This document shows positions 4,214 through 45,273 of a stretch of 64,000 nucleotides of DNA, one piece after another. The notes beneath the pieces are model-generated. The model saw only the letters and a list, made by a program, of their open reading frames with translations. It ran no database searches and was not told the DNA's origin. Numbering within the stretch: the first letter of the stretch is position 1; every line of letters starts with the position of its first letter. The translations under genes were made by a program, and so were the position numbers. Source of the stretch: an uncultured Pyrinomonadaceae bacterium (GTDB taxonomy: Bacteria; Acidobacteriota; Blastocatellia; Pyrinomonadales; Pyrinomonadaceae); contig CAXSFM010000001.1 in assembly GCA_964236735.1 (NCBI GenBank), positions 122,015 through 186,014 of the forward strand. The letters are read 5' to 3'.

Positions 4214-4286
4214 GTCAGTACCGCCTGCGGTAGCGGGCGGGTACTTACGTTGCAGACACCCGCCCGCTACCGCAGGCGGTACTGAC
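4214..4286. repeat. Perfect 29-bp inverted repeat (15-nt loop) in the spacer between the histidine-phosphatase gene and nnrD
   Basis: gtcagtaccgcctgcggtagcgggcgggt / acccgcccgctaccgcaggcggtactgac are exact reverse complements. No U-tract follows. Confidence 0.9.
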
Positions 4287-4304: not shown

Positions 4305-5075
4305 TTATTTCGGAGCGACTGGCACATCGCTCGATGTGGTAACGGCCTCGCCGGCCTCTTCGAGCGGGACTGTGAAATTGAAGAGACGCGGCGCGAACTT
4401 TCCTTTCTCGCCCATCGCTTTGTCATATTCGTAAGACGTGACCGAGCAGTTGGCGACATCACATTCGCGGTCGAGCGTCAGAATTTCATCTTCCGTCATC
4501 CGTTCGAGCAGATAACGAAAACAAAAGACGACGACCGAGTGCGCGACGATCAGAACACGCTCGCGCCTGTATTCGCGCGTCACCGTATCTACCACGCTGC
4601 GAAGACGAAGGATTACGTCGCACCAACTCTCGCCGCCCGGCGGGCGATGATAAAACTTGCCGAGCGCGGTGCGAATCTCCGCCTGCTCCGGGTACTTTTG
4701 CTGGACGCCCGATCTGGTCAGGCGGTCGAGGATGCCGAACTCTTTTTCGCGCAGGCGTTCATCCGTCACGAAGATGATTTTCTCCGCATCAATCCCTGCG
4801 GAGGCGAGCATGATTTCCGCCGTCCTGCGCGCGCGAAGATATGGCGAGACGAGCACGACGCGCGGTCGCTCATCTTCATCCATCGCGCCGTACCAGCGAC
4901 CGAGCGCGTCGGCCTGTCTCTCGCCGAGTTGCGACAGCGGCACGTCCACGTCGCGCATCGCGATGTCTATCACGCCCAGCCCGGAAGCTTCCGCGAGGTC
5001 GCGCGCCACATTTCCCGCGCTCTCGCCGTGTCGCACAATCCACAGCACGTCCGGCCACTTTTGCGAGTCGTTCAT
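4305..5075 (-). CDS. Histidine phosphatase family protein (phosphoglycerate-mutase-like)
   Basis: RHGES catalytic motif near the N-terminus (LWIVRHGESAGN) and a second His motif (IVAHS). Confidence 0.75.
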   Translation of the reverse strand: MNDSQKWPDVLWIVRHGESAGNVARDLAEASGLGVIDIAMRDVDVPLSQLGERQADALGRWYGAMDEDERPRVVLVSPYLRARRTAEIMLASAGIDAEKIIFVTDERLREKEFGILDRLTRSGVQQKYPEQAEIRTALGKFYHRPPGGESWCDVILRLRSVVDTVTREYRRERVLIVAHSVVVFCFRYLLERMTEDEILTLDRECDVANCSVTSYEYDKAMGEKGKFAPRLFNFTVPLEEAGEAVTTSSDVPVAPK

Positions 5076-7999: not shown

Positions 8000-8662
8000 T
8001 TGACAGCCGCCGCATTCTACGACCTAGAGGGCACGCTCGTGAGCACCAATCTCGTGCATACGCTCGGCTTCTACGCGCGCAACCAGCAAGGTTTGCTCCG
8101 CAGCATTCGCAAGAGCGCCGCCACGCTCGTCAGCCTGCCCGTCTTCGCCGTCACGGATCAGGTCAGCCGCATGGTCTTCAACGACATGTTTTTCAAACGC
8201 TACAAAGGCGAATCCGAAGACCGTCTCCGTTACTTCGCCGGAGACTTGTTCGAGAAAGTGCTCAAGCCCGCCATCTTTCCCGGCTCGTTCGAGTTGATCG
8301 AAAAGTCGCGCAGCCTCGGACTCCGGCAAGTGGTTGTGACAGGCGCGCTCGACATCTCGGTTGAGCCGCTGATGAAGCACTTGGGAATTGACGACTACGT
8401 GGCAAATCGTCTTGAATTCGTCAACGGCGTCGCGACGGGACGACTGCTCCCGCCCGTGCTCGCCTCCGCGACGAAGGCTTCGTGGATACGCACCTACGCC
8501 GAGCGCGAGAAAATCAATCTCAACGAATCCTTCGCATACAGCGACAGCATGAGCGATTTGCCCATGCTCTCCATCGTCGGACACCCGGCGGCGGTCAACC
8601 CCGACATGCGCCTCAAACAGACGGCGCTTCATCACGACTGGCCGATACTGAATTTGAAGTGA
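8000..8662 (+). CDS. HAD-IB family hydrolase (phosphoserine-phosphatase-like)
   Basis: DLEGTL motif I near the N-terminus and a later HAD motif. TTG start preceded by a GGAGGA ribosome-binding site. Confidence 0.7.
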   Translation: MTAAAFYDLEGTLVSTNLVHTLGFYARNQQGLLRSIRKSAATLVSLPVFAVTDQVSRMVFNDMFFKRYKGESEDRLRYFAGDLFEKVLKPAIFPGSFELIEKSRSLGLRQVVVTGALDISVEPLMKHLGIDDYVANRLEFVNGVATGRLLPPVLASATKASWIRTYAEREKINLNESFAYSDSMSDLPMLSIVGHPAAVNPDMRLKQTALHHDWPILNLK

Positions 8663-8735
8663 TGAGTGATGAGTGATGAGTGATGAGTAAAGAAATTTTG
8701 CTCTCACTCATCACTCATCACTCATCACTCATCAC
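8659..8735. repeat. Intercistronic hairpin: (GTGATGA)x4 arm, 17-nt loop, (TCATCAC)x4 arm
   Basis: Exact 30-nt arms. The left arm contains the TGA stop of the HAD gene; the right arm ends 10 nt before the ATG of the next gene. Same repeat unit as the hairpin at 49114-49188. Confidence 0.9.
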
Positions 8736-8744
8736 TTAATAAAG

Positions 8745-10343
<1,599 letters not shown>

Positions 10344-10367
10344 GGTAAATGCATACGAGACATAGCA

Positions 10368-10940
10368 ATGAGTACGACTCGCATAATTACTGCTGACGAT
10401 TTGTTAGTCATGCCTCATCGTGATAGGCACGGCAATGATTGCCGACTTGAGTTGATTCACGGAGAGGTAAAGACGGCATCGCTCAATTCAATGGCACATG
10501 GCGTACTCTGCGTAAGACTTGCAACCGCCGTCAGTAATTTTGTTGAAGCGCACGAGCTAGGCGTTGTCTTCGCTACAGGGACAGGATTTCTCGTGGAGCA
10601 GAATCCTGATACGGTGTACGGCGTAGATGTCGCGTTTGTGAGCCACAAGCGGTTGAAGGCAGTCAATAATCTCGAAAAGTTCATTCCCTTTGCGCCCGAT
10701 TTAGCTATAGAAGTTTTGGGCATGAACGATACGATTTACGAAATGGATGAGAAGATCGCTTTCTACTTTGCCGCCGGTTCGCGCCTTGTGTGTATCATCA
10801 ATCCGAAGCGTCGCACGGTTGCGGTTTATACTTCGACGCTTGACGTGCGTATTTTCGACGGCAGCGACACGCTCGACGGCGGCGACGTTTTGCCGGGCTT
10901 CAAACTTGAGCTTTCCAGACTATTTGCCAACTTAAAATAG
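10368..10940 (+). CDS. Uma2 family endonuclease (DUF820, restriction-endonuclease-like fold)
   Basis: Typical Uma2 features: PDLAIEVLG... motif region and size (~190 aa). Confidence 0.7.
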   Translation: MSTTRIITADDLLVMPHRDRHGNDCRLELIHGEVKTASLNSMAHGVLCVRLATAVSNFVEAHELGVVFATGTGFLVEQNPDTVYGVDVAFVSHKRLKAVNNLEKFIPFAPDLAIEVLGMNDTIYEMDEKIAFYFAAGSRLVCIINPKRRTVAVYTSTLDVRIFDGSDTLDGGDVLPGFKLELSRLFANLK

Positions 10941-10969
10941 CGAGACGCGGCGCGGCATCCTGAGCCAAC

Positions 10970-13900
10970 ATGAAATTATCTCCGACAGAAATTTATCACG
11001 ATAGGAAAGTCTTCATCATCGGCGCGACCGGCTTCGTCGGCAAAGTCGCGCTCTCGATGCTGCTCGACCGCTTCCCCGGCGTCGGGCGCGTCTATGTCAC
11101 CGTGCGCGCTCGCTCGAAGGAAGAATCCGAGACGCGCTTCTGGAACAACGTCATCACCTCGCCGCCGTTCGATCCGATTCGCACACGCTACGGCGCGGCC
11201 TTCGAGGATTTCATCCGCGACAAAGTCCGCATCGTCAACGGCGACATCGGCGAAGACAATCTTGGCCTTACGGAAGAAGACGCGCAAGCTGTCGCCGACG
11301 ACATTGACGTGATCATCAACAGCGCGGGCAACGTCACTTTCAACCCGACGCTTGAAAGCGCGCTACGCACGAACGTCGTCGGCACACAGAACGTCATCCT
11401 GTTTGCCAAACGGATGAAGCGTCCCGCGCTCGTCCACATCTCGACGTGCTTCGTCGCGGGCAATCGTTCCGGGCCGGTGTGGGAGAGCGATCCGGTCGTT
11501 GGATACTTTCCGCGACGCGAGGAGATTCCCGGCGTCGAGTTTTCGGCGGAGCAGGAAATACGCGACTGCGCGAAACTGGCCGACCGCGTGCGCGAAGAGG
11601 CGCGCGATGCTTTGCAGGCCGCGCGCTTTCGTGAGAACGCGCGCAAGCGCCTTATCGAAGAGGGACGCAACCCCGACGACCTCGACGCGATGGGCTTGGC
11701 CGTCGCGCGCGAGCGCAAAATCTGGACGCGCGAGCGTCTGACGGAACTCGGCATCGAGCGCGCGGAGTTCTGGGGCTGGCCGAATATTTACACCTACACG
11801 AAGAGTCTCGGCGAACAACTCGTCGCCGCCGAGACGGATGTCGTGCGCGCCATCGTGCGCCCGTCCATCGTCGAGTCGGCCATCAAATTTCCCTTCCCCG
11901 GCTGGAACGAAGGCTTCACGACAACCGCGCCGCTCATCTTCATCGCGCTCAAAGGCCAGACGCAGATTCCCGTCAACGAAAAGTTGATTCTCGACATCAC
12001 GCCCGTTGATCAAGTCGCCGCCGTGATGCTCGCCGTCGCGGCGGAAGCGTGCGTGCGCGAGCCGCGCCTCGTCTTTCAGGCCGCGACCGGCGACAGCAAT
12101 CCGAACGACATGGAGCGCATCGTCGGCTTACTCGGTCTCTACAAGCGACAGCATTTCCAGGATAAGGAAACCGGCTTCCGAATCGTCAATGCCATCGCCG
12201 GGCGCATGGAAGCGCGTCCCGTCACGCCTTCGCGTTTTGATAAAACCTCGACGCCGATGGTCAACGCGGCGGCGAAGAAAGTTTCCTCCTTACTCGAACG
12301 CGCGCGCCCGCGTTGGGGCGGCGGTCGCCTGACCGATGTCATTGACAGCGCGCGTCAACAAATTGATCGTCTCGAAGAACTGACGCACGAAACCAAAGAA
12401 GCGTTCGAGATGTTTCGTCCCTTCATGGTCGAGAATGCTTACGTCTTCCGCGCCGACAACGTGCGCTCGCTCTTCGCGCAAATTCGTGCGGACGAGCGGC
12501 AACTGCTGACGTGGAACCCGGACAAGTTCGATTGGTACGACTACTGGATGCACGTCCATTTTCCGGGCTTGCAGAAATGGGTTTTCCCGACGCTCGAAGA
12601 AGACATGCGCGCGCAGCCGAAGCGCGCTTACACCTATCGCGATTTGCTCGAACTCTTCGAGACTTCGACGAAACGTTTCAGCACGCGCGTCGCCATGCGG
12701 ATCGAGCGCGACGGGCAGAAAGAGCAATACACCTACGCCGACTTGCAGGAACTGGCGACGCGCGCCGCCGCCTTCTTCGCCAGTCGCGGAGTCAAGCCGG
12801 CGGACAGAGTCGTGCTCGCCAGCCACAATGCGCCCGAATGGGGCATGAGTTATTTCGGCGTCCTCAAAGCCGGCGCGACGTGCGTGCCGGTTGACCCTGA
12901 AAGCTCGACGGAGGAACTCGTCAACTTCGTGCGCGCGAGCGGCGCGGTCGGAATTATCATCAACGCGAAAGTTGACGAGGCGCACGCAGACCTCGCCGAT
13001 GCGCTGACTCTCGCGGGACTGACAGTGACGCAAATCTGGCGGACGGCTGAGGTTTTCGAGTTAACCGACGAGGCGATGGAAGACGCGCGCATCGCACTGC
13101 TTCCCAGCCGCGTGACGGCGAACACGACGGCCTCTCTCATCTTCACTTCGGGCACGACGGGACAGCCGAAGGGCGTCATGCTCACGCACAAGAATCTGAC
13201 CAACATGGTCTCGATGCTCTCGTCCGTCTTCGACATGGACACGAGCGACGGCGTGCTCTCCGTGCTTCCGCTTTATCACACGTTCGAGTTCTCGACCGGC
13301 TTCCTAACGCCGTTCAGTCGCGGCACGCAGATAACTTATCTCGAAGAATTAAACAGCGACGAACTGGCGCGCGCCGTCAAAGACGGGCACGTCACGGGAA
13401 TGGTCGGCGTGCCCGCTTTGTGGGAGTTGCTGCATCGCCGCATCAACAATCGCTTGCACGAAAACAACGTCTGGGTCGGACGCGCGGCGGACATTATGAT
13501 GAGCGCGAACGGCTGGCTGCGCGACAATACGCCGCTTAATCTCGGACAAATTCTCTTCCGCCCGATTCATCAGGGACTCGGCGGGCACATCCGATATTTC
13601 ATCAGCGGCGGCTCGTCTCTCAATGAAAAAGTGAAGCGCGACATGCACCAACTCGGCTTCACCATCCTCGAAGGCTACGGGCTGACCGAAGCCTCGCCGG
13701 TGCTGACCGTCACGCGCCCGCAGAATCGCCTGATGCGGACGAGCGTCGGCAAGGCTCTGCCCGGCGTTGAACTCCGCATCAACGACGCGGACGCGAGCGG
13801 CGTCGGCGAAGTCGTCGCGCGCGGGCCCAATGTGATGGCCGGTTATTTTCAAAACGAGGAGGCGACCAAACTCGCGCTCATCAATCGCTGGCTCTACACG

Positions 13901-15439
13901 GGCGATCTCGGACGCCTTGATGATGAAGGCAATCTCTATCTCGTCGGACGCTCGAAAGAAATCATCGTTGACACGAACGGCAAGAATGTTTACCCGGACG
14001 AGATCGAAGAGTTGTACAGCGATTCGCCGTTTATCGAAGAGATCGGCGTCGTCGGTTTGACGGAGAGCGTCGGCGAAAAAATCGCCTGCATCGTCGTCCC
14101 GAACTACGATCACGACATCGCACTTTCGCGTGATGAAGTGCGCCGCAAAATCGAAAATCATTTCCGCGACGTGTCTTCGACGCTTCCCTTTTATAAGCGC
14201 GTCAAGTCGCTCTATTTCACGGACAGTGAACTGCCGCGCACGCCGACGAAGAAGGTCAAGCGGCGCGAAGTCGTCAAGATTATCGAATCGCTCGAAGAAA
14301 GTTTGCGTGCGGGATTGCGTGAAGGCGGCGCGGAAACTGCGTCGGCAACAACGTCAGGCAAGCGACAGAGCGATGCGGGTTGGCTCCTTGATGTCGTCGC
14401 CACCGTCGCCAACAAGCCACGCGCGCAAGTCACGCTCGATACGCGCCTCGCCGAACTCGGCTTCGATAGTTTGATGTTCGTCGAGCTTGCTTCTTCAATC
14501 GAAGGCGCGGGAGGCACGCTCACCTCGCCCGACTCGCTCAACGAAGTGCAAACCGTGCGCGAACTGCAAACGGTCGTCACGCGCAAACCGACCGTTGCCG
14601 AGCGACGCGCCGCAGAAGCGCGCGCCGCAGAAGAATTGCGCGAGGACGACGCGGAAATTTTCATTCCTTCCGTTGTCCGCACGGTCGGCAACAAAGGTCT
14701 CGATTATTTACAGAGTCTCTTTTATCAAAAGTTCCTGCACACGCAGGTCGAAGGCGAGACGAACATTCCCGTCCATACGAATTTCATCGTCGCCGCCAAC
14801 CACTCTTCGCACCTCGACATGGGACTCGTCAAAATGGCGCTCGGCGAGCAGGGGCGCGACATGGTGGCGCTCGCCGCCGCCGATTATTTTTTCGACAACA
14901 AATACAAGCGCGCCTACATGGACAACTTCACGAACCTCGTGCCCATTGAGCGTTCGGGCAGCCTTCGCAAGTCGCTCCGCCACGCGCGCTCGTTCCTTGA
15001 GCGCGGCTACACAGCCCTCATCTTCCCCGAAGGCACGCGCTCGATGACGGGCGAGTTGGACGAGTTCAAGCCCATCATCGGCTATCTCGCGCTCTCAACA
15101 CGGACGGGAATTTTACCGCTTCATTTGCAGGGCACTTACGCGGCGATGCCGAAAGGCTCGAACGTTATCAAGAGCCGCGAGGTGGGCGCGCGCGTCGGTC
15201 ATTTCCTTTCCATCGAAGAACTCGAAGACCTAACGCACGGGATGCCGAAGTCAGAGGCGTACCGTCTCGTCGCCGCGCTCGTCCATCACGAGATTGAAAA
15301 CTTGCGCGACGGCACGCGCCACGCTTTCGACGCCAAGTCGCTGCGCCGACGCTGGCGCACGGAGCGACGCGCCGCCGCACACGAAGAGACGGGTGACGAG
15401 ACGACACATGACGACACCTTCATTGCGACCGGCGACTGA
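10970..15439 (+). CDS. Multidomain lipid-biosynthesis enzyme: fatty-acyl reductase (NAD_binding_4) - AMP-dependent ligase - ACP - 1-acyl-sn-glycerol-3-phosphate acyltransferase (ElbD-like)
   Basis: N-terminal IGATGFVGK plus YTYTK reductase motifs. Central AMP-binding LIFTSGTTGQPKGVMLTHKNL. Phosphopantetheine site LGFDSLMFVEL. C-terminal acyltransferase HxxxxD (NHSSHLD) and FPEGTRS. Confidence 0.85.
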   Translation: MKLSPTEIYHDRKVFIIGATGFVGKVALSMLLDRFPGVGRVYVTVRARSKEESETRFWNNVITSPPFDPIRTRYGAAFEDFIRDKVRIVNGDIGEDNLGLTEEDAQAVADDIDVIINSAGNVTFNPTLESALRTNVVGTQNVILFAKRMKRPALVHISTCFVAGNRSGPVWESDPVVGYFPRREEIPGVEFSAEQEIRDCAKLADRVREEARDALQAARFRENARKRLIEEGRNPDDLDAMGLAVARERKIWTRERLTELGIERAEFWGWPNIYTYTKSLGEQLVAAETDVVRAIVRPSIVESAIKFPFPGWNEGFTTTAPLIFIALKGQTQIPVNEKLILDITPVDQVAAVMLAVAAEACVREPRLVFQAATGDSNPNDMERIVGLLGLYKRQHFQDKETGFRIVNAIAGRMEARPVTPSRFDKTSTPMVNAAAKKVSSLLERARPRWGGGRLTDVIDSARQQIDRLEELTHETKEAFEMFRPFMVENAYVFRADNVRSLFAQIRADERQLLTWNPDKFDWYDYWMHVHFPGLQKWVFPTLEEDMRAQPKRAYTYRDLLELFETSTKRFSTRVAMRIERDGQKEQYTYADLQELATRAAAFFASRGVKPADRVVLASHNAPEWGMSYFGVLKAGATCVPVDPESSTEELVNFVRASGAVGIIINAKVDEAHADLADALTLAGLTVTQIWRTAEVFELTDEAMEDARIALLPSRVTANTTASLIFTSGTTGQPKGVMLTHKNLTNMVSMLSSVFDMDTSDGVLSVLPLYHTFEFSTGFLTPFSRGTQITYLEELNSDELARAVKDGHVTGMVGVPALWELLHRRINNRLHENNVWVGRAADIMMSANGWLRDNTPLNLGQILFRPIHQGLGGHIRYFISGGSSLNEKVKRDMHQLGFTILEGYGLTEASPVLTVTRPQNRLMRTSVGKALPGVELRINDADASGVGEVVARGPNVMAGYFQNEEATKLALINRWLYTGDLGRLDDEGNLYLVGRSKEIIVDTNGKNVYPDEIEELYSDSPFIEEIGVVGLTESVGEKIACIVVPNYDHDIALSRDEVRRKIENHFRDVSSTLPFYKRVKSLYFTDSELPRTPTKKVKRREVVKIIESLEESLRAGLREGGAETASATTSGKRQSDAGWLLDVVATVANKPRAQVTLDTRLAELGFDSLMFVELASSIEGAGGTLTSPDSLNEVQTVRELQTVVTRKPTVAERRAAEARAAEELREDDAEIFIPSVVRTVGNKGLDYLQSLFYQKFLHTQVEGETNIPVHTNFIVAANHSSHLDMGLVKMALGEQGRDMVALAAADYFFDNKYKRAYMDNFTNLVPIERSGSLRKSLRHARSFLERGYTALIFPEGTRSMTGELDEFKPIIGYLALSTRTGILPLHLQGTYAAMPKGSNVIKSREVGARVGHFLSIEELEDLTHGMPKSEAYRLVAALVHHEIENLRDGTRHAFDAKSLRRRWRTERRAAAHEETGDETTHDDTFIATGD

Positions 15440-16641
15440 TGAAGCCGGCGACAAACCAAATCAACGACACGATGCCAACCAAACGCCGCGCGCCAACTAA
15501 AACAGCAACGCCGAAAAAAGCGACGAAGGCTCCTATCAAAGCCGCTGCCAAATCCGTCGTCGAATCCACCAAGCGCAAGCCTGCGACGAAAAAATCCGCC
15601 GCTGTCAAGACGCTCGCGAAGCGGCCTCGTCCCGTCACGCTTGTCACGGGCGGGACGGGTTTTCTCGGCCAGCATCTCGTGCGCCTGCTCGTCGCGGAAG
15701 GCGTCGAGAACGTGCGCGTGTTCTCGACCTCGGCTCCTTCGTGGCTCTCGGAAAGCGGCGTCGAATCCATTCAAGGCTCAATCACTTCGCCGCAGGATGT
15801 AGCGCGTGCGGTCGAGGGCGTCGCGGAGATTTATCATCTGGCGGGCCGCGTCTCGCTTAACAAGGAAGACGCGCACGAGATGTTCGCGCTCCACGTCGAA
15901 GGCACGCGCGTACTCTGTCAGGCAGCGGCGACGGCGGGAGTGAAAAGTATCGTCATGGCTTCGACGAGCGGCACGGTGGCTGTCACGGAGACGGGCGATG
16001 TCGTGCCGGATGAAGACTGGCCGACGCCGCTTGAGATTATCTCGCGCTGGCCTTACTACGCGAGCAAGCTGTATCAGGAAACGGTCGCGCGCGAAAAATT
16101 TGCGGGCGACGGGCGGCGGCTCGTGATCGTCAATCCGAGTCTCCTACTCGGCCCCGGCGATGAGCGTCTCAGTTCGACGAAAGTCGTGCTCGATTTTCTC
16201 GCGCGCAAAATTATGTCCGTGCCGAAAGGCGGTCTGAGCTTCGTGGACGTGCGCGATGCGGCGCGCGCGCTGTTGGCGGCGATGGAGCGCGGCGCAGATG
16301 GCGAGCGTTATTTGCTCGGCGCAGCCAACTGGACGTTCAATGATTTTTTCGGACGGCTCGAACGCATCACCAAAGTCGCCGCCCCGCGCCTGACGCTTCC
16401 GTCAAAACTCGCCGTCAACGGCGCGAAAGGTTTGAACGCGCTCTTCCGTCACTGGAAACTCACGCCGCCCGTCGAGCCGGTCGAAGTGGAAATGGCTGAC
16501 TACTTCTGGTATCTGGATGCGTCGAAGGCTGTGCGTGATTTAGCGTTCGCGCCGCGCGATCCATCCGAGACTCTGTTCGAGACTGTCACTTACGTGCGCG
16601 AAAATTTTCTCGATAATGCAGCCTTCAGCCGCGCCGTTTGA
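15439..16641 (+). CDS. NAD-dependent epimerase/dehydratase family (extended SDR) protein with Lys/Ala/Pro-rich N-terminal tail
   Basis: VTGGTGFLGQHLV Rossmann motif and YYASK catalytic dyad. Start codon overlaps the stop of the upstream gene (ATGA), suggesting translational coupling. Residues 1-65 are low-complexity K/A/T/P. Confidence 0.75.
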   Translation: MKPATNQINDTMPTKRRAPTKTATPKKATKAPIKAAAKSVVESTKRKPATKKSAAVKTLAKRPRPVTLVTGGTGFLGQHLVRLLVAEGVENVRVFSTSAPSWLSESGVESIQGSITSPQDVARAVEGVAEIYHLAGRVSLNKEDAHEMFALHVEGTRVLCQAAATAGVKSIVMASTSGTVAVTETGDVVPDEDWPTPLEIISRWPYYASKLYQETVAREKFAGDGRRLVIVNPSLLLGPGDERLSSTKVVLDFLARKIMSVPKGGLSFVDVRDAARALLAAMERGADGERYLLGAANWTFNDFFGRLERITKVAAPRLTLPSKLAVNGAKGLNALFRHWKLTPPVEPVEVEMADYFWYLDASKAVRDLAFAPRDPSETLFETVTYVRENFLDNAAFSRAV

Positions 16642-16648
16642 ACAGAAT

Positions 16649-17593
16649 TTAGAGCGGGCATCTCACGCGCAGCGCGAGCGGCAGAATTTCAAATCGTGCG
16701 GGCAAACGTCCGACTAATTCGCCGTCAACTTCCAACTCAACATCTTCATTTGAAGCCGCACGCACCGCGACTTTTCGCGCGCATGCGTGGCGCACATCTT
16801 TCATTCCGAGATGCGTGCCGAGATAGACGCGGTACGAATTCGCCAGTATCGAAAGCGGGCTGAGATCGCCGATGGCGACGACATCGAACGCGCCGTCGTT
16901 AACTTTCGCTTCGGGCGCGACGCGCATTCCGCCGCCGAAATATTGCGCGTTCGCCACGCAGAAATTCGTCACCGTCAGGCGCGACTCCGCGCCTTCATCC
17001 AAACGCACATGCACCGCAGGCTTCTCGAAGGTCAGCGTCTCCTTGAGCGCCGCCGACGCGAAGGATAATTTGCCGCCGCCGAGCAGTCGCGACGCGCCGG
17101 ACGAGAGCAACTTATCTTCCTTGACGCGCCTGACGACCGCGCCGCCTATTCCGCACGAAGCGACGTTGATAAAGTGTCGCGTCTCTTCCGCGCCCGCCTC
17201 GTTGACAAAAGTGACGCGCCCCGCATCCATCAGTCGCGTCCGCCCATTTTTCAAAACCTGCGCCGCTTCCGCTCCGCGCGTCGCTATTTTCAGAGTGCGA
17301 CGAAAATCTCCGCCCGTCCCGCTCGGCAAGATTCCCAACTCCGCGCCCGCGCCCGATTGAAGAATGCCATCCGCGACTTCCGAGATCGTCCCATCGCCTC
17401 CGCAAGCGATAATGAAGCGACGGCCTGACTCTGCCTCGCGTCGTGCGATAGAAGATGCGTCGCGACTCGCTTTCGTGAAGGCGCAATTAAACGCACCGAA
17501 GTGCCGCCGCAAATCGCTGGCAAGTCCCGGCCATGCCGCGCCGGTCGCGCCGCCTGCGGATGCGGGATTGATGATGACGAGCGGCAGAGGCAT
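16649..17593 (-). CDS. Diacylglycerol-kinase-catalytic-domain lipid kinase (YegS/BmrU-like)
   Basis: IINPASAGG ... ACGGDGT ... GGG motifs of the DAGK_cat family. Start placed at the internal Met (MPLPLVIINP), since the longer track ORF begins inside the 17607-17660 hairpin. Confidence 0.7.
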   Translation of the reverse strand: MPLPLVIINPASAGGATGAAWPGLASDLRRHFGAFNCAFTKASRDASSIARREAESGRRFIIACGGDGTISEVADGILQSGAGAELGILPSGTGGDFRRTLKIATRGAEAAQVLKNGRTRLMDAGRVTFVNEAGAEETRHFINVASCGIGGAVVRRVKEDKLLSSGASRLLGGGKLSFASAALKETLTFEKPAVHVRLDEGAESRLTVTNFCVANAQYFGGGMRVAPEAKVNDGAFDVVAIGDLSPLSILANSYRVYLGTHLGMKDVRHACARKVAVRAASNEDVELEVDGELVGRLPARFEILPLALRVRCPL

Positions 17594-17606
17594 CAAAATT
17601 TTCTTA

Positions 17607-17660
17607 GCGTCTTTGCGCCTTTGCGTGAAAATCATTGCTCACGCAAAGGCGCAAAGACGC
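17607..17660. repeat. Intercistronic hairpin (22-nt arms) between the PlsC-like gene and the lipid-kinase gene
   Basis: gcgtctttgcgcctttgcgtga / tcacgcaaaggcgcaaagacgc are exact reverse complements with a 10-nt loop. Confidence 0.9.
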
Positions 17661-17682
17661 AGTTAAGACACAAGAGAAATCA

Positions 17683-18588
17683 TCAGGAACTGGCGCGAAA
17701 AGTTGACGAGGCGATGGTTGTTTGTCGCTTCGCTTCCGCCAGACGCGCGGCGCGATCCTGCTCGCCGAGTTCGGCGATCTTGCTCATCACGTAGTCCGCG
17801 ATTTCTTTGTACGTGCGGACTGAGTCTCGCCGCTCAAGATAGTCCGCGAAGTCGAGAGCTTCTCCGAAGTGGATGCGTATGTGTTCGCCGCCGCGCCAGT
17901 TGCCGAGCACTTGCTGCGGAAGGTCATTGCTAAGTCCAGCGATGAAGACGGGAATAACCTGCGGGTTCGCTTCCTTGATAAGTTTGCCGATGCCCGGCTG
18001 CGGGCGCAGGTACGTGTACGGGTCGTCGTTTTTGTTGCGCGTGCCTTCAGGGTGAAAGCCGATGATGTGCCCTTCGCCTTCGCGACAGAGTTGCGCCAGC
18101 AGCCGCAGCGAATATTTATCAAAGTCGCGCTTGTCTGTGAGCGGGTTTTCACCCGACGCGAAAAACGGCGGGTACATAGACCACCAGCCCATCAGGAAGT
18201 TGACGATGAGGCCGAGCGGCGAGTCGTAGAAAAAACGCCCGCGCACGGGAAAGAAAAGTTTTTTTCGCCAGCGCGTTCGTCGAAAGAGCACGCTTGAGAC
18301 GGCGTAGAGATCGAAGAATGAGCGATGGTTAGCGACGAGCAGCAGCGGGCGTTCGTGCGAGACGGACTCGACGTGTTCGAGGCCATAGACGCGCATGATG
18401 TTGTAAGTGGCGAGGTGTATCCAGCCCGCGCCGAAGATACGCTGGCAGAAAGTCCAGAGACGTTTCCAACCGCCCTCATTCATCCGGCGCGTGAAGCGGA
18501 AAGCGAAACGCTCGAAGCCCGACAAGACGCGCAGCTCATCCGGCGTCGGCTCTAATCTCTCAATATTTTTCTGCGTTGTGCTCATCAA
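17683..18588 (-). CDS. 1-acyl-sn-glycerol-3-phosphate acyltransferase (PlsC-like lysophospholipid acyltransferase)
   Basis: HxxxxD motif NHRSFFD and HPEGTRN, ~300 aa. Confidence 0.8.
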   Translation of the reverse strand: MMSTTQKNIERLEPTPDELRVLSGFERFAFRFTRRMNEGGWKRLWTFCQRIFGAGWIHLATYNIMRVYGLEHVESVSHERPLLLVANHRSFFDLYAVSSVLFRRTRWRKKLFFPVRGRFFYDSPLGLIVNFLMGWWSMYPPFFASGENPLTDKRDFDKYSLRLLAQLCREGEGHIIGFHPEGTRNKNDDPYTYLRPQPGIGKLIKEANPQVIPVFIAGLSNDLPQQVLGNWRGGEHIRIHFGEALDFADYLERRDSVRTYKEIADYVMSKIAELGEQDRAARLAEAKRQTTIASSTFRASS

Positions 18589-18592
18589 AAAA

Positions 18593-18658
18593 GTTCAAGG
18601 TTCAAGATTCAAAGTTAATGATGCGCCAACTTTGAAGTTTGAACTTTGAACCTTGAAC
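18593..18658. repeat. Intercistronic imperfect hairpin built from GTTCAAG-like heptamers, between metH and the PlsC-like gene
   Basis: gttcaaggttcaagattcaaagtt ... aactttgaagtttgaactttgaaccttgaac. The arms are complementary, with one extra repeat unit on the 3' side. Confidence 0.8.
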
Positions 18659-18664
18659 TCGATT

Positions 18665-21600
18665 CTAATCTATCGAGAAGTATTTCGCTTCCTCGTGATG
18701 CACGATAATCGCGGAAGTAGATTGCTCCGGCACGAGTTGAAACTCCTCGCTCAGTTCTACTTCGATGCGCGCGGGGTCGAGCAACTCGAAGAGTTTGACT
18801 TGATCCTCAAGATTCGGGCAGGCCGGGTAGCCGAAGCTGAAACGCGAGCCTTGATAGCCTTGATGGAAAAGTTTCGTCATCTCTTTCGCGTCGCGCGCGG
18901 CGATGCCGAGTTCTTCGCGGATGCGCTTGTGCCAGAGTTCGGCGAGCGCTTCCGCGCACTCGACCGAGAGGCCGTGAAAGTAGAGATAGTCCGCGTAGTT
19001 GTCAGCCTTGAAAAGTTCCTGCGCGTAATCGCTCGCGCGTCGCCCGACGGTGACGAGGTGAAACGGCACGACATCAACGCGCCCCGAATTTTTTGACGCG
19101 AAGTAATCCGCGAGACACAGGCACTTGCCCGCCGGCTGGCGCGGAAAAGTGAAATGCAAACGCTCGGTGCGCTCGTCGTCTTCGTAGATGATGAGGTCGT
19201 TGCCTTCGGACTGGCAGGGGAAATATCCATAGACGACGCGCGGCGTCAAAAGTTGCTCGCGCTTCGCACGCTCTTTCAATTCTTGATAGACCGGTCGCAC
19301 CTTGCCGCTCACGAGCGCACTGTAGTCTTCCGCCGAACTCCTGCCCTGTTTGAATTGCCACTGGCCTTTGAAGAGCGCGGTTTCGTTGACGAAGGCGAAA
19401 ACGTCGTCGAGCGCGATGTCTTCAACGACACGCGAGCCGTAAAAAGGCGCGCGGGGAATCGGCGCGTCCGGGTTCACGTCGGAGCGCGTCGTGTGCGTCG
19501 TATCGCCGCTGATGCGCGTGGCAGCGCGCGTGCGAGCGACAGGGGCGCGGATGCCGAGTTTCGCGTCCTCGCCCACCAAATCTTCTACATCGTCAGCGAC
19601 GCTCTCGTTCGTCGCGGACGACGCAGCAGAGGCCGCAGCGACTTTCACTTTCTCATCCATCTCTTTGCCGTTCGCCGTGTTCGTCAGTTTGTCCATGACG
19701 TGCAGGCCGTCGAAAGCGTCGCGCGCATAAAAGAGCGTGCCTTTGTAAATCGCGGTCAAATCATCTTCGACATAGCGACGTGTTAATGCCGCGCCGCCAA
19801 GCACGACGGGCACGCCGATGCCGCGCTCGTTCAAGACCGCGAGATTCTCTTTCATCACGAGCGTGGATTTGACGAGCAGGCCGCTCATCCCGATGGCGTC
19901 CGCGCCGTGCTCATCAAAGGCCGCGAGGATGTTTTCCACCGGCTGCTTGATGCCGAGATTGATGACGCGATAACCGTTGTTCGTCAGAATGATGTCCACG
20001 AGATTTTTTCCGATGTCATGCACATCGCCCTTGACGGTGGCAAGCACCATCGTCCCCTTCGCCGTCGCGCCGCCCTTCTTCTCCATGAATGGTTCGAGGA
20101 AGCGCACCGCCGTCTTCATCACTTCCGCCGATTGCAGCACGAACGGGAGTTGCATCTGCCCGCTTCCGAAAAGTTCGCCGACGACTTTCATGCCGTCGAG
20201 CAGAATGTTGTTGATGATGTCGAGCGCGGGATAACTTTCCAGCGCGACTTTCAAGTTGTCTTCGAGTCCGAGTTTCTCGCCGTCAATAACGTGCTGCTTT
20301 AGTTTCTCTTCAACCGGTAGATTGCTCGTATCCTGCTTGACGCTCTTCGTCGTCACGCCCTCAAACAACGTCGTCAGTTCGCCGAGCGGATCATAGATGC
20401 ACACATCGCCCTCGAAACGCCGCTCGTCATAGATAAGTTCGTGCGCCACCGCGCGCTCGCGCTCGCCGATGCGATTAAGCGGCACGATCTTGCTGGCGTT
20501 GACGATGGCCGCGTCGAGTCCGGCTTCGACCGCATCATGCAGAAACACGGAATTGAGCGCGACGCGCGTCGCCGTGTTGAGTCCGAACGAAATGTTCGAG
20601 ACGCCGAGAATCGTGAAGCAGCCAGGCAATTCCGCCTTGATGCGACGAATGCCGTCAATCGTTTCGACCGCGTTGCGGCGGTCTTCCTCAATGCCGGTGG
20701 AGATGGGCAGCGCGAGCGGGTCAAAGAAAATGTCGGATGCAGTGAAACCGAGTTCGCCCGTGGCCTGCTCGTAAGCGCGCTTGGCAATACGCAGTTTTCC
20801 GTCGGCGGTGCGCGCCATGCCTTCCTCGTCAATCGTGCCGATGACGACGCTCGCGCCGTAGGCTTTCGCCAGCTCGATGACTTTTTTGAAACGCTCCTCG
20901 CCGTCCTCATAATTCGTCGAGTTGAGAATGCACTTGCCGCCCGCGTGTTGAAGCCCCGCTTCCATCTTTTGCCATTCGGTCGAGTCGAGCATGAGAGGGA
21001 TTTTCACGTTCGTCACGAGCCGCGAGACGAGCGAGTGCATATCGTCCACACCATCGCGCCCGACGAAATCAACGTTGACATCGAGAATGTGCGCGCCTTC
21101 GCGTTCCTGCTCGCGAGCCAGAGAGACAAGTCCGTCCCAATCCTCCGCGTTGAGCAAGTCTCTCATCTTTTTCGAGCCGGAAGCGTTGACGCGCTCGCCG
21201 ACGATGAGAAACGAAGTGTCCTGTTGGTACGGTTGCTGGATGTAGAGCGACGAGGCGGCGGGAACGTGCGGGACTTCGCGTCTGTGCGGCGTCACGTCGC
21301 GCACGGCTTCGACGACGGCCTTGAGATGCGCGGGCGTCGTGCCGCAACAACCGCCGACGATGGAGACGCCGAGGTCGCGCGCGAAGTGGAGCAGTTCGGA
21401 CGCGAGCGACTCCGGCGTCTCTTTGTAGTGTGCGTGCCCGCCGACGTTTTCCGGGATGCCGGCGTTGGGAATGACAGAGACGGGAAATTTCGAGTTTTCG
21501 CAGAGAAAGCGCACGTTCTCCGTCATCTGCTGCGGCCCGGTCGCGCAGTTCATGCCGACGACATCAATGGCGAACGGCTCAAGCGTGGTCAGCGCGGCGT

Positions 21601-22210
21601 TGATCTCCGTGCCCATCAACATCGTGCCCTGCTGTTCAATCGTGACCTGCGTGATGACGGGCACGCGCCGTTTCGTCGCGGCAAATTCATCGAAGATGGC
21701 GGCCAGCGCGGCTTTCGTCTGCAAGATATCCTGACATGTCTCGACGATTAAAATATCCGCGCCGCCGTCGAGCAGGCCGCGCACTTGCTCGGCGTAAGAG
21801 GCTTTCATGTCGAGAAACGTGATGTGACCGAGACTCGGCAATTTCGTCGTCGGCCCCATCGAGCCGGCGACGAAGCGCGGCTTCTCTGTCGTCGAAAAAT
21901 CGACGGCGACTTTCTTCGCGAGTTGCGCCGCTTTGAAATTCAACTCGTAGGCGAGATGCGCGATGTCGTATTCGGCGAGCACGATGGAGGCCGAGCCGAA
22001 AGAGTCCGTCTCGATCACGTCGCAGCCGACTTCGAGAAAACCCGCGTGGACATTTTCGATAGCCGAAGGTTTCGTGATGAGCAGATATTCGTTGCAGCCG
22101 TCGAGTCCGCCGAAGTCGTCCGGCGTCAGATTCTGCGTCTGGATATTCGTGCCCATCGCGCCATCAAAGACGACGATGCGCTCTTTTAATGTCTTCAGAA
22201 AATCGTTCAT
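18665..22210 (-). CDS. metH: Methionine synthase (cobalamin-dependent), full multi-domain MetH
   Basis: Hcy-binding, pterin-binding, B12-binding (DVHDIGKN) and AdoMet-activation domains are all recognisable. Start set at MNDFLKTL (22210), because the upstream extension only translates the terminator hairpin. Confidence 0.95.
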
Positions 22211-22250
22211 AAGTTGAATGCAGCCAGCGTTCAGCGATGAGCAGCGAGCC

Positions 22251-22285
22251 AAAAAAAACACCCCGCGCCAAACAACGCGGGGCTT
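22251..22285 (-). terminator. Intrinsic-terminator-like hairpin plus U8, about 40 nt upstream of the metH start on the metH strand
   Basis: Minus strand reads ccccgcg-ttgtttgg-cgcgggg then tgtttttttt. Sits inside a ~350-nt leader, so it is a candidate riboswitch/attenuator expression platform. Confidence 0.55.
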
Positions 22286-22586
22286 CATCTCGAAAGCCTG
22301 ATGATCGCGTGCCTTCTCGTGGAAGACTGCGCCGATGCTGTTTAGCGGTTTATTTTACGTGGCCGCAAGTCGCCTTAACTCACCACGTTTGCCCGTTATT
22401 GAAACATCGCGTGCCGGTCATGTCAAGAGAGGCTTTTGATATGGCGAGCCGGTCGTTTGTTTCTCTTTGAGATGAAGTGTCACGTCTTTCGCGCGTGCGT
22501 CTCGACATTGTTCTAGCATCCTTGCCTGTGCTAATTTCCAACTGTTCTTCGGCTTCAAACTTTGGATGAGGTCACCTGCCAAACAC

Positions 22587-24389: not shown

Positions 24390-24430
24390 GATTGACCGCT
24401 CACGACATTGATTCGCGTGTGCCATCTCAA

Positions 24431-24472
24431 ATCAAAGAGGCTGCCCAGATGGAACGGGCAGCCTCTTTGATT
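24431..24472. terminator. Bidirectional intrinsic terminator between convergent genes
   Basis: aaagaggctgccc-agatggaac-gggcagcctcttt with flanking T/A runs, lying between the aminotransferase (+) and the TonB-C protein (-). Confidence 0.6.
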
Positions 24473-24494
24473 TAATTAATCAGCTTTCGCGCTT

Positions 24495-25934
24495 TCAGTA
24501 AATATTGAAATTGTATTCGAGCGCGATGTATTGCGAGACGTTGCGCCCGTCCTTCTGCGCGGGCTGGAACTTGATACTCTTCGCCGCCGTGATGGCGCGC
24601 TCCGTCAATCCGTCCGGCAAGCCCTGTATGACGCTGATGCTCGTCACCGTTCCCGTCGCGCTCAACACGACGCGCAGCCTGACGAGGCCGGTGACGCCGT
24701 TCTTGCGCGCCTCTTCGGTGAAGCCCGGCTCCGGCCTCGACGTGATGACAGCCTTGCGCGTCACTTCATCTCGCCTGAAAACGCGATGATAGTCTTCCGG
24801 TGCGCTGCCACCCGGCCCGCCGGGGCCGCCCGTTCCGTATTGTGGGTCGCCACCACCTGTGTTCTCGCCGCGACCGTGGCCGTAGCCTTTGCCCTGCCCT
24901 GCCCCCTGCCCGCTCCCGTCGCCTGTGCCCTGACCGCCGCCCGTCCCCGAACCATCCGAAGGAATTTGCGAAAGCGATTTCGGGTCGCCGAAGGGAATCT
25001 GTCGCGGGTCTTCCGGCAACAGCAACGGATCGCCCTTGAGCGTCGGCATGACCGCGAGCGCAGGATTCTTGACCGTCGGCTGTCGCACGTTCGGCGCGAT
25101 GAGTTGATCGCTCATGCTGCCGGGCGCGATCTTGCCCTTTGAGGTCGGCAGCGAGTTGAGATTGCCGCCGCCACCGCCGCCTCCCGGTCTTTCATGGTTT
25201 TGCATCGAGCCGCCGCCCTTGCCATGACTCAGCCCGGCTGCGCCCGTCTCCGGCGTCGCTTGTTCTTTCGGGATGATGTTGCCGTTCACCCACTCGACGA
25301 CTTCCAAATCGTTTCGCTTTGTGTCGGCGTAAAACTGCTCGCAACGCCCGCCGAAATGAGACATGAACAGGCAACGATTGGCGACGGCCATCCAGACGCT
25401 GCCGATAAAAAGCAGCAGGCACATCGGGACGAGCAGCGCGGGCGCGGTATGCTCGCGCGCGAGAAAGCTTGCCCCAAGTTGGCCGTAGCCGGCGAACATG
25501 CGCCCCGTGAATCCGAACGGGTCGCGCTTAAATTCAGGCCACGTCAATTCCGATGAGCGCGCCACCGATGTGAGTTCGACGACGAGTCGCCGCAGCAGTC
25601 CTGTGTCTTCGAGAATGGTCAGACTGTAATCACGACGCGCGACAAAAACGGCGGCGTGCGCCGTCTCTTGCCAGAGGTTTAGTTGAATCTCTTGTGCCAT
25701 ACGTTTCGACAACCTTTCTTCATAACCCGTCCAGAAATTTTCCGCAGGGGAGACCGCTTCAATCGCATGGTCGAAAACTCTCAACGTCTGTGACAGCGAA
25801 CGATACTGGCTGAGACAAGCAGGACACTGTGACGCCTCCGCGAGCAGATGCCGCCCGCGCTCCGCGTCAAGCTCATCGAAGAGCATGTCAACCAACTTTT
25901 CCTGCGTCTCTAAGCAAACGTGCATCTTTATCAC
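24495..25934 (-). CDS. Anti-sigma factor (zf-HC2-like N-terminus, single TM, Gly-rich linker) fused to a TonB C-terminal domain
   Basis: N-terminal H-x3-C...CPAC zinc-finger pattern, one hydrophobic helix (ALLVPMCLLLFIGSVWMAV), a long G-rich linker, and a C-terminus (VTGLVRLRVVLSATGTV...QYIALEYNFNIY) matching the TonB_C fold pattern. Immediately downstream of an ECF sigma gene. Confidence 0.65.
   Translation of the reverse strand: MIKMHVCLETQEKLVDMLFDELDAERGRHLLAEASQCPACLSQYRSLSQTLRVFDHAIEAVSPAENFWTGYEERLSKRMAQEIQLNLWQETAHAAVFVARRDYSLTILEDTGLLRRLVVELTSVARSSELTWPEFKRDPFGFTGRMFAGYGQLGASFLAREHTAPALLVPMCLLLFIGSVWMAVANRCLFMSHFGGRCEQFYADTKRNDLEVVEWVNGNIIPKEQATPETGAAGLSHGKGGGSMQNHERPGGGGGGGNLNSLPTSKGKIAPGSMSDQLIAPNVRQPTVKNPALAVMPTLKGDPLLLPEDPRQIPFGDPKSLSQIPSDGSGTGGGQGTGDGSGQGAGQGKGYGHGRGENTGGGDPQYGTGGPGGPGGSAPEDYHRVFRRDEVTRKAVITSRPEPGFTEEARKNGVTGLVRLRVVLSATGTVTSISVIQGLPDGLTERAITAAKSIKFQPAQKDGRNVSQYIALEYNFNIY

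Positions 25935-43833: not shown

Positions 43834-45273
<1,440 letters not shown>

Follow-up and report, generated by a model that had tools for sequence, protein, structure and literature searches.

Hairpins made of tandem heptanucleotides have been known for more than 30 years in filamentous cyanobacteria, without an accepted origin or function. The classical units of these short tandemly repeated repetitive (STRR) elements are CCCCAGT, TTGGTCA, and CAACAGT; STRR hairpins are found in spacers of the cyanobacterial nif cluster among other places, and a 1995 report by Jackman and Mulligan is said to describe spacers that vary between close relatives yet remain structured. STRR sequences, mostly 7-bp repeats able to form hairpins, lie between hupS and hupL in several strains of filamentous cyanobacteria and in other cyanobacterial spacers too, and their function is unsettled, transcript stability, translational coupling, and transcription termination having all been proposed (PMC2670836). 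Here we describe hairpins of the same kind, most of them with arms of tandem heptamers, in a 64,000-nucleotide stretch of DNA (the window: positions 122,015 to 186,014 of contig CAXSFM010000001.1, assembly GCA_964236735.1) from an uncultured bacterium of the family Pyrinomonadaceae, phylum Acidobacteriota. They appear to be a known kind of element in a phylum where it is apparently undescribed: in the literature on Acidobacteriota, Blastocatellia, and Chloracidobacterium we found no description of such hairpins.

Two other groups of repeats come close. One is the repetitive extragenic palindromic (REP) sequences and bacterial interspersed mosaic elements (BIMEs), including the REP doublets forming hairpins (REPINs), which have been described from Enterobacteria and Pseudomonas together with the REP-associated tyrosine transposases (RAYTs) (PMC3116915). 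The other is TAACTGA, an intergenic direct heptamer repeat of marine Beggiatoaceae, some Cyanobacteria, and Bacteroidetes, which ends just before start codons and is patchily distributed across phyla (PMC4679880).

The hairpins of the window resemble STRRs in that intergenic arrays of tandem 7-bp units can fold with an inverted counterpart into a hairpin between cotranscribed genes. They differ in their hosts, Acidobacteriota and Candidatus Poribacteria and not heterocystous or filamentous cyanobacteria, and in their units; what is shared is the architecture, not the repeat families. To our knowledge, the strict G-rich-5′-arm polarity, the stop codon overlap, and the near-saturated operon spacers described below are unreported for STRRs, and the first 50 kb of Nostoc pCC7120alpha held no STRR-like hairpins. 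With REPs, BIMEs, and REPINs the elements have in common that they are extragenic, palindromic, hairpin forming, and dispersed, with several families per genome and many copies, that they form inverted doublets of about 70 to 110 nt, and that they often lie at gene 3′ ends in operons, where REPs can stabilize the upstream mRNA. The arms here are, in contrast, tandem heptamers and not unique 20- to 40-nt sequences, the loops are not conserved between copies, and the families far outnumber what a few RAYTs would be expected to serve. Like TAACTGA, they are tandem heptamers, nearly always intergenic, near start codons, and patchy across phyla, and the reverse complement TCAGTTA holds the AGT that is characteristic of the units here; however, TAACTGA repeats are direct and of low structure, with one inverted pair reported (PMC4679880), whereas an inverted array is the rule in the present elements.

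RESULTS

Long hairpins in intergenic spacers of the window

Nine long hairpins, i.e., 1.4 per 10 kb, were found in the window (G+C, 58%), all of them intergenic, with arms of 22 to 33 bp and loops of 10 to 39 nt. Six had been listed in a preliminary description of this DNA and are real, each lying within 1 to 3 nt of where that description had placed it; the others are at 33996-34093, 43622-43718, and 56883-56966. At a score of at least 16, the window gave 11 hairpins and ten dinucleotide-preserving shuffles gave none (best shuffle score, 14). In the RNA folding that had been proposed as a check, free energies (dG) ranged from −30 to −72 kcal/mol and z-scores from −4.6 to −11.7, none of 200 shuffles being as stable; folding of the non-hairpin spacers of 40 to 350 nt was not unusual. 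Independently, Tandem Repeats Finder reported period-7 arrays at 8658, 8704, 18593, 18628, 49113, 49157, 51996, and 52061, on both arms of the hairpins at 8657, 18592, 49113, and 51998; for 17607 it gave a period of 8. Rfam 15 at the gathering threshold matched no family at any hairpin, its only matches in the window being two riboswitches elsewhere (c-di-GMP-I and SAM_alpha), and there are no tRNAs in the window.

The preliminary description had also named sequencing or assembly artifacts as grounds for its refutation. An independent Logan assembly (run ERR10807079) is identical to window positions 8708 to 18934, without a mismatch and including the hairpins at 17607 and 18592, and therefore the window hairpins are not artifacts of one assembly. 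The Logan assembly ends inside the 8657 hairpin; short-read assemblers typically break at long inverted repeats.

Two hairpins share the unit AGTGATG (GTGATGA in another register). That at 8657-8737 has perfect 32-bp arms, (AGTGATG)4.4 and (TCACTCA)4.7, i.e., (AGTGATG)n and (CATCACT)n, around a 17-nt loop (dG, −59.2 kcal/mol; z = −11.7), and by Pfam it separates an HAD hydrolase gene (8000-8662, plus strand) from a LarA-like gene (8745-10343, plus strand). That at 49113-49182 has 26-bp (AGTGATG)n arms with one mismatch and an 18-nt loop (dG, −45.4 kcal/mol; z = −9.9); a degenerate outer unit extends to 49189, and weaker pairing reaches 49103-49199. As noted in the preliminary description, it lies between two permease genes, oppB-like (48107-49117, plus strand) and oppC-like (49198-50013, plus strand), both BPD_transp_1 proteins of the OppB/OppC type.

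Three further hairpins have short-period arms and fill their spacers. The hairpin at 17607-17660 has perfect 22-bp arms with an 8-nt period (GCGTCTTT GCGCCTTT GCGTGA) and lies between an acyltransferase gene (17683-18585, minus strand) and a DAGK/YegS-like gene (16649-17593, minus strand). At 18592-18659, 25-bp arms of (AGTTCAA)n-type units with three mismatches separate metH (18665-22288, minus strand) from the same minus-strand acyltransferase gene, whose ATG follows the stem by 6 nt. The G+C content of the AGTGATG and AGTTCAA hairpins is 35 to 39%. At 51998-52086, between an ABC-2 permease gene (51163-51993, plus strand) and a deacetylase gene (52093-52989, plus strand), 25-bp arms with one mismatch enclose a 39-nt loop and carry the units CAGTGGG, CAGTGGC, and TAGTGGT mirrored in both arms; the stop codon precedes the stem by 4 nt, and the ATG follows it by 6 nt.

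The remaining four are of other types. As had been described, the hairpin at 4214-4286 has perfect 29-bp arms not built from tandem units; they are GC rich and contain GGTAGCGGGCGGG. It represents what we call family C and lies between a His_Phos_1 gene (4305-5075, minus strand) and an NnrD-like gene (3272 to about 4186, minus strand). Family B comprises two palindromic elements of about 170 nt, both assigned to the minus strand: copy 1, at 33955-34125, has its inner arms (TTCACCACAGAGGAC...CACAGAG) at 33996-34093 in a divergent spacer, 5′ of a minus-strand open reading frame (ORF), and copy 2, at 43581-43752, has its inner arms at 43622-43718, between a TonB-like gene with its terminator (43769-43809) and an ATP-grasp gene (42228-43466, minus strand). 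Finally, AAGGCAA-like 33-bp arms with four mismatches and A/T flanks (56883-56966) lie between the convergent TPR/NB-ARC (53957-56800, plus strand) and Roadblock-like (56982-57347, minus strand) genes, where the hairpin may act as a bidirectional terminator.

Stop codon, stem, and start codon follow a regular order

With a gene map drawn from ORFs, Pfam matches, and selection by third-position G+C, seven of the nine hairpins lie between codirectional genes (4214, 8657, 17607, 18592, 43622, 49113, and 51998). Codirectionality, stated earlier as general, thus holds for the six hairpins then listed but fails for the divergent 33996 and the convergent 56883. Five hairpins (8657, 17607, 18592, 49113, and 51998) fill their spacers almost exactly. 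The claim that both AGTGATG stems swallow the upstream stop codon was borne out, the TGA codons of the HAD gene (8660-8662) and oppB (49115-49117) occupying stem positions 3 to 6; the plus-strand HAD stop is part of the first repeat unit (AAG-TGA-TG), in the 5′ arm. The next ATG follows the stem by 7 nt at 8657 (at 8745, LarA-like) and by 15 nt at 49113 (at 49198, oppC-like). The linkers before the start codons (TAATAAAG, TAATTT, TTTTTG, and TAAGAAAATTTTG) are AT rich and devoid of a Shine-Dalgarno motif, TAATAAAG being the 7-nt linker before the plus-strand LarA-like ATG at 8745-8747. On the coding strand, UUUUU directly follows the 18592 hairpin.

For the minus-strand DAGK/YegS-like gene, the longest ORF and the Logan call agree on a start within the hairpin loop (ATG at 17635; 328 amino acids); orthologues of 311 to 314 amino acids fit the ATG at 17593, 13 nt past the 17607 hairpin. 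Hairpins of this kind hence mislead start codon calling, and they also break short-read assemblies.

Orthologous junctions keep the position and change the unit

The closest relatives of the OppC-like protein (84 to 89% identity) come from Pyrinomonadaceae and Blastocatellia metagenome-assembled genomes (MAGs), and the acyltransferase, which has a 100% match on a 522,879-bp contig, has homologues named Pyrinomonadaceae; the LarA-like protein gave no exact match. The hairpins of the relatives have the same architecture with other units, among them TGGTGAA, TTGCCGA, CAGTAGA, CTTTGCG, GCCAGTT, CAGTTTT, CGTGAAT, and AGTTCAA, and their flanking genes are syntenic housekeeping genes across many genomes. 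Some units are those of the window (loci fetched for comparison carry L numbers): CTTTGCG-type arms, as at 17607, recur at L009 4544, AGTTCAA, as at 18592, in L083, L204, L109, and L117, and arms like those at 56883 at L011 1755 and L087 3145. A control of 1.13 Mb of loci from other phyla, retrieved with the same protein query, held eight long hairpins, of which only one or two had period-7 arms.

All five genomes examined have a hairpin at the HAD-LarA junction, with four different units: AGTGATG in the window, AGTTCAA in L083 and L204, CGTGAAT in L206, and CAGTAGT in L207. The HAD C terminus (...ILNLK*) is conserved in the five, the first unit overlaps the stop codon (AAG-TGA-TG, AAG-TAG-TC, or AAA-TAG-TTCAA), and ACT closes all of the 3′ arms, after which come an AT-rich linker of 5 to 8 nt and the ATG. 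Four genomes likewise have four hairpin types at the metH-acyltransferase junction, and at an epimerase/nonribosomal peptide synthetase-like junction hairpins are present in four relatives, the two genes overlapping at 15439 in the window.

Occupancy is more variable at the oppB-oppC junction. AGTGATG units in the window correspond to GTGAATG/GTAAATG in L003 and to decayed hairpins in L005 and L010 (GGTCTTT and TTTACCG units); five relatives have no hairpin, with a spacer of 0 to 10 nt or overlapping genes, and three more distant ones have long spacers with no clear hairpin. In an OppBC tree, long spacers branch off at the base and empty sites fall among filled ones, and loss of the hairpin by deletion is at least as parsimonious as repeated gain. 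Between the filled (L003) and the empty (L006) junction, the insert lies between the stop codon and GTTT-ATG, with no target-site duplication flanking it. With different units in the same places, the position of the hairpins is far more conserved than their sequence, and permissive junctions are highly occupied.

Downstream, the 42-nt spacer between oppC and an ABC ATPase gene (50014-50055) holds two lone CTCATCAC units (ATCTCATCACAGGCACACGCTTTCTCATCACTTC) with no complementary arm, perhaps what is left of a GTGATGA hairpin that decayed or was half deleted.

Unit, polarity, and orientation across 709 kb

We surveyed the window, the relatives, and metagenome loci (709 kb), the metagenome loci having been chosen for carrying a GTGATGA hairpin, and took the orientation of flanking genes from crude longest-ORF gene calls. 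Of 166 hairpins, 121 (73%) have period-7 arms, with 32 distinct consensus units. The metagenome loci contain 3.5 hairpins per 10 kb, a density that would extrapolate to hundreds per genome and is to be read with their preselection for a hairpin in mind. Beyond the GTGATGA family they yielded 63 hairpins, many recurring between contigs and matching hairpins of the window, such as the families AGTTCAA, CAGTAGG, AAGGCAA, TTAACCACAGAG... (33996 and 43622), and GTACCGC..GCGGTAGCG.GCGG (4214).

The hairpins have a constant polarity, the G-rich, AGT-containing arm being the 5′ arm on both strands. The 5′ arm has more G than C in 39 of the 41 period-7 hairpins outside the GTGATGA family (P = 8e−10) and in 33 of 38 nonperiodic ones. 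AGT outnumbers ACT by 96 to 1 in 5′ arms and is part of 17 of the 32 units, no unit having ACT; of the three classical STRR units, two (CCCCAGT and CAACAGT) hold AGT. The junctions suggest that AGT often joins the last base or bases of the final sense codon to the first T of the stop codon, or comes from a TAG with a T behind it.

Flanking genes are codirectional for 70% of the 121 hairpins, divergent for 17%, and convergent for 12%, compared with 73, 12, and 15% of the gene junctions in the window. The hairpins are therefore as common at other junctions as the background of gene orientations predicts, an outcome that the preliminary description had named as refuting it, and tight spacers between genes are occupied whatever the orientation. 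A divergent spacer typically has its hairpin next to one start codon, and a convergent one next to both stop codons. In 68% of cases the 5′ arm contains the stop codon or has it no more than 20 nt away, and in 54% the first ATG is found at most 20 nt from the 3′ arm. The geometry of a stop in the stem base and an ATG 5 to 15 nt past the stem is thus real and general: the elements begin at or on the upstream stop codon and finish 5 to 15 nt before the next start. Only about 15% of 117 period-7 hairpins have a T-rich tail; the 18592 hairpin, with its UUUUU, departs from the lack of a U-tract stated earlier.

The architecture also occurs sporadically outside Acidobacteriota, a 34-bp-arm hairpin with (CAGATTT)-type heptamer arms being present at L080 595-720 in an Anaerolineales UBA4826 MAG (Chloroflexota).

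The AGTGATG family in metagenomes

A scan with the pattern GTGATGAGTGATGAG-N3-33-CTCATCACTCATCAC found the AGTGATG hairpin in at least 120 metagenome stretches. Among the copies examined (83 from 80 fetched loci plus the two of the window), the arms are the same, the loops and flanks all differ, and the G+C contents of the contigs go from 0.35 to 0.74. The loops often start with (T)AAAG and end with CTTT(A), which lengthens the stem; 5 of about 3,500 loop pairs are alike, vs 0 in shuffles, a weak similarity that is partly due to this common motif. Pure arms measure 25 ± 7 nt (left) and 24 ± 6 nt (right) in an element of 68 ± 12 nt, with lengths spanning 15 to 45 nt and a left-right correlation of only r = 0.50. 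Of 64 genes entering the hairpin, 34 have their stop codon within the 5′ arm and 26 have it 0 to 20 nt ahead of the arm (60 of 64 in all); of 59 genes leaving it, 39 have their start codon at most 15 nt away. The swallowing of the stop codon is hence a family-wide property. Within two units, the AGTGATG repeat yields TGA in all three frames on either strand.

Exact-protein look-ups assigned L090, L098, L111, and L135 to Pyrinomonadaceae or Acidobacteria, and L114, with an AGTGATG hairpin at 13351-13405 on a contig of G+C 0.43, to Candidatus Poribacteria. Other low-GC carriers are L091, L104, L105, and L157. A phage origin of the hairpin was considered and rejected, the pattern having no exact match in 2.9 million viral contigs.

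Signs of DNA-level upkeep and of copying

If stems were kept for the sense RNA, a G·U bias would be expected among mismatches on the transcribed strand. Such a bias was not observed: the sense strand has 36 G·U vs 48 A·C mismatches in 85 codirectional hairpins and 14 vs 22 in a high-confidence subset of 41. Variant units are mirrored between the arms at 51998, in L003, and at L207 13550, which means that the arms must copy or constrain each other. A telomerase-like activity that adds repeats at either end of a break before the ends are joined would account for the polarity and for the variable centers; this idea was set aside on account of these mirrored units.

The two family B copies have about 89% identical flanks in an imperfect palindrome of about 170 nt with outer arms GCGGGTTGCAAATGAATG.../...CATGTCGCACTCATTCGCAAACCGC, and their differences are compensated in both arms. 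The central loops of about 35 nt are mutually inverted (flip-flop), with the outer flanks cooriented and both copies 5′ of minus-strand genes. Relatives of the form TTAACCAC...GTGGTTAA are present in L036, L085, L092, L103, L151, and L207. Family C has copies at L090 684, L090 3038, L103 9, L123 1592, L156 5025, L156 12756, and L204 4114; its conserved core is GTACCGC..GCGGTAGCG.GCGG. The 4214 hairpin contains GTAG (GGTAGCGGGCGG) and then a GC-rich palindrome, each arm being itself partly palindromic, and is thereby the most REP/REPIN-like element of the window; GTAG is otherwise confined to CAGTAGG-type units and absent from AGTGATG, AGTTCAA, and CTTTGCG arms. Families with arms as complex as GTACCGC..GCGGTAGCG.GCGG and TTAACCACAGAG.. 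recur between genomes, and on their sequence could hardly have arisen twice independently.

One Pyrinomonadaceae metagenome contig (L135 1-13635) carries the S10-spc ribosomal protein cluster from rplC to map, and 13 of the 19 spacers between its cistrons hold heptamer hairpins (units AGTTTTC, GGATTTT, AGTGATG/AGTGATA, GGGATGA, and GTAAATG). In studied bacteria this cluster is made as long polycistronic mRNAs, and hairpins throughout it rule out efficient termination. Four AGTTTTC copies have common loop motifs (GCRAAAAGCTTTT) and a 15-nt tail, GCGAACGGAGTGAGC, which puts GGAG 8 to 10 nt before the next ATG. Since both loops and tail are shared, these copies appear to have been copied within the genome, and their sequences are good evidence of whole-module copying.

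DISCUSSION

The hairpins form a large, multifamily class in Pyrinomonadaceae and related Blastocatellia, present at least once in Candidatus Poribacteria, in which occupancy and repeat unit, to judge from the junctions compared, change fast between related genomes. On balance we lean toward reading them as STRR/REPIN-like extragenic palindromic repeats that are kept up at the DNA level and tolerated through their ability to fold back, and not as terminators. Candidate processes, both established, are replication slippage in heptamer steps and template switching between inverted repeats (quasipalindrome correction). Slippage in 7-nt steps would lengthen, shorten, and homogenize the arms, and intrastrand template switching between them would copy variant units from arm to arm and could invert loops; palindromes would thereby be made and kept symmetrical in the DNA. 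New sites would be colonized through copying of whole elements, which inside operons would be transcribed passively. Such an insert may be tolerated because it folds back, so that the stop and the next start stay only a few nucleotides apart in the folded RNA; a passive role in keeping the two close is plausible. C-poor 5′ arms such as AGTGATG may in addition be tolerated for the stop codons that they give in all three frames. Any effects on the mRNA, which could be a block to exonucleases, RNase III cleavage of the 22- to 33-bp helices, or exposure of a masked downstream start as a terminating ribosome melts the foot of the stem, would be secondary.

Several observations weigh against this reading. 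A tblastn search of 2.1 Mb of fetched fragments with Escherichia coli RayT and Nostoc IS200 TnpA gave no significant hit, the two best weak hits (the acyltransferase/DAGK locus and a permease) being spurious, in fragments where a single-copy gene is easily missed. The near-absence of alike AGTGATG loops (5 of about 3,500 pairs) is odd for recent whole-element transposition; hairpins that originated in place, or loops that turn over very fast, would fit it. First units often agree with the stop context around them (AAG-TGA, AAG-TAG, or AAA-TAG-T), which points to in-place seeding or microhomology-guided insertion and not to classical transposition, and no target-site duplication separates L003 from L006. 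The mismatch test, with 84 and 36 informative mismatches, is a small one and depends on crude longest-ORF gene calls. The regular stop-hairpin-linker-ATG spacing and the near-saturated ribosomal protein operon could equally fit selection for an RNA function. As to spread, there is support both for seeding in place at stop codons and for the copying of whole elements. The preliminary characterization as REP-like thus stands in part: the elements are dispersed extragenic palindromic families with arms at many unrelated loci and genomes, but the GTGATGA units lack GTAG, and no RAYT was found in the fragments searched. Nor do they behave like miniature inverted-repeat transposable elements, given the filled oppB-oppC junction devoid of a target-site duplication. 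Integron attC sites are similar in conserving structure over sequence and in filling spacers between codirectional ORFs; by gene content, the flanks here are syntenic housekeeping genes and not cassettes, and no integrase turned up in a general scan of about 40 window proteins, which was not a search aimed at integrases or R″/R′ core sites.

The best surviving alternative, credible if improbable, is that the host selects the hairpins as RNA devices. As intercistronic stem-loops on polycistronic mRNA they would set the relative expression of neighboring cistrons, be it as a 3′-exonuclease barrier, as an RNase III site (cf. phage T7 early genes), or as a structural bridge that holds stop and start together or masks the start until the upstream ribosome opens the stem base. 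The placement of stop and start codons around the arms, in the survey (68 and 54%) as in the AGTGATG family (60 of 64 and 39 of 59), speaks for this, as do the five genomes that keep the HAD-LarA hairpin with identical boundaries and differing sequence, and the S10-spc cluster with its 13 occupied spacers and four GGAG tails. Perfect helices of 22 to 33 bp are, moreover, long enough for RNase III. The same functions have been suggested for cyanobacterial STRR hairpins (PMC2670836). The flanking orientation is, however, that of the background, convergent and divergent spacers being occupied too; the sense strand has no G·U preference; and the five close relatives with a 0- to 10-nt oppB-oppC spacer do without the hairpin, which is dispensable there. 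Together these points leave the case for a dedicated device weak, and insertion into a very short original spacer would give the same tight geometry. The translation-coupling or mRNA-processing device envisaged in the preliminary description consequently finds no specific support; given the general stop-stem-ATG geometry, a passive effect on coupling would be plausible. The long near-perfect helices between cistrons do recall phage T7 RNase III hairpins and REP mRNA stabilizers; those sites are individually conserved and strand specific, whereas the present hairpins are DNA symmetric, turn over fast, and occupy nonoperon spacers as well. By analogy, RNase III processing or REP-type stabilization would most likely be the RNA-level action, if there is any.

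Rather unlikely, in our estimate, is an origin in place with no mobility at all, in which a heptamer overlapping the stop codon is amplified by slippage and its inverted copy made by a strand switch, units recurring because stop codon contexts are alike (AG plus TGA, AG plus TAG). It would account for first units that overlap and match their own stop (TGA in the window, TAG in L207 and L204), for the first unit of L003, TCGTAAA, which continues the native gene end TCGTGA, for loops unrelated between copies, and for the lack of a target-site duplication; by a summary in PMC4679880, heptanucleotides are the most frequent long simple-sequence-repeat unit of prokaryotes. It accounts poorly for the complex nontandem arms of about 30 nt (families B and C), which are found at unrelated loci and genomes and are not local inventions, for the tail and loop motifs shared by the AGTTTTC copies, for an identical AGTGATG unit in another phylum, and for units that contain no stop codon (AGTTCAA and GGATTTT).

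It is very improbable that the hairpins represent an unusual long-stem sort of Rho-independent terminator or attenuator that lacks a U-tract, and the preliminary description was right to say that they are not terminators. Very stable stems at gene 3′ ends, the A/T runs on either side of 56883 between its convergent genes, the UUUUU after 18592, and a heptamer hairpin that encloses a canonical terminator (L008) would fit. Compared with intrinsic terminators, though, the arms (22 to 33 bp) and loops (10 to 39 nt) are long, the G+C content is low in AGTGATG and AGTTCAA, and a T-tail is found in only 15%; hairpins lie inside oppBC and throughout an S10-spc cluster and occupy divergent spacers too; ordinary A/T-tract terminators stand separately elsewhere in the window (24429, 40137, and 43769); and a scan with the terminator consensus stayed at the background level and flagged no hairpin. 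Assembly or sequencing artifacts such as chimeric fold-back reads have a negligible chance, for although one short-read assembly breaks within 8657, two hairpins are reproduced in an independent assembly and hundreds of equivalent ones come from unrelated projects and assemblers at orthologous junctions.

In L008 (3037-3159, between convergent transglycosylase and Roadblock-like genes), 33-bp (CAGTAGA)n arms enclose a canonical GC-rich terminator and its T-run in a 57-nt loop; the heptamer arms appear to have formed or inserted around a preexisting terminator.

A bolder proposal, which we hold to be doubtful, goes beyond the STRR/REPIN-like reading: a structure-specific DNA system common to several phyla, such as a hairpin- or AGT/ACT-recognizing single-strand transposase or a template-switching repair activity, would make and spread stop codon-foldback-start modules, place them precisely at gene boundaries, and maintain their symmetry. 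If true, it would explain the strict AGT-N4 polarity, the AGTGATG arms that Acidobacteriota and Poribacteria have in identical form, the different families at the same junctions, and the saturated essential operons, and it would offer a way into what cyanobacterial STRRs do and how they arose, for which there has been no explanation since 1990. Whatever the agent, the dense occurrence of the hairpins in soil Acidobacteriota, together with AGTGATG in Poribacteria, means that the phenomenon is not peculiar to cyanobacteria. The comparative material assembled here (orthologous junctions that are empty, differently filled, or decaying; the polarity rule; the stop overlap; and the tolerance of ribosomal operons) makes the rival ideas of a selfish palindrome, an RNA stabilizer or processing site, and translational coupling testable.

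Other features of the window

Both riboswitches are on the minus strand. The SAM_alpha (SAM-II type) match at 22321-22396, directly upstream of metH, scores 41.2 bits in Rfam (gathering threshold, 36); the family is named for Alphaproteobacteria, and the match here is in an acidobacterium. The c-di-GMP-I riboswitch at 62987-63080 scores 54.4 bits and lies upstream of a small minus-strand ORF (62815-63132 region).

The gene at 53957-56800 encodes a protein of 947 amino acids that combines NB-ARC/AAA with TPR, and a 120-nt tandem repeat lies within the gene (56434-56686). The gene is missing from the syntenic loci of all relatives, where the transglycosylase gene adjoins the Roadblock-like gene, and by this comparison looks like a lineage-specific insertion. 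Two paralogous genes, at 24495-25934 and 43834-45273, encode 479-amino-acid TonB_C proteins with 71 to 77% DNA identity in three segments that together make up about 520 nt. Behind each paralogue stands a canonical bidirectional terminator (24429-24473 and 43769-43809, respectively).

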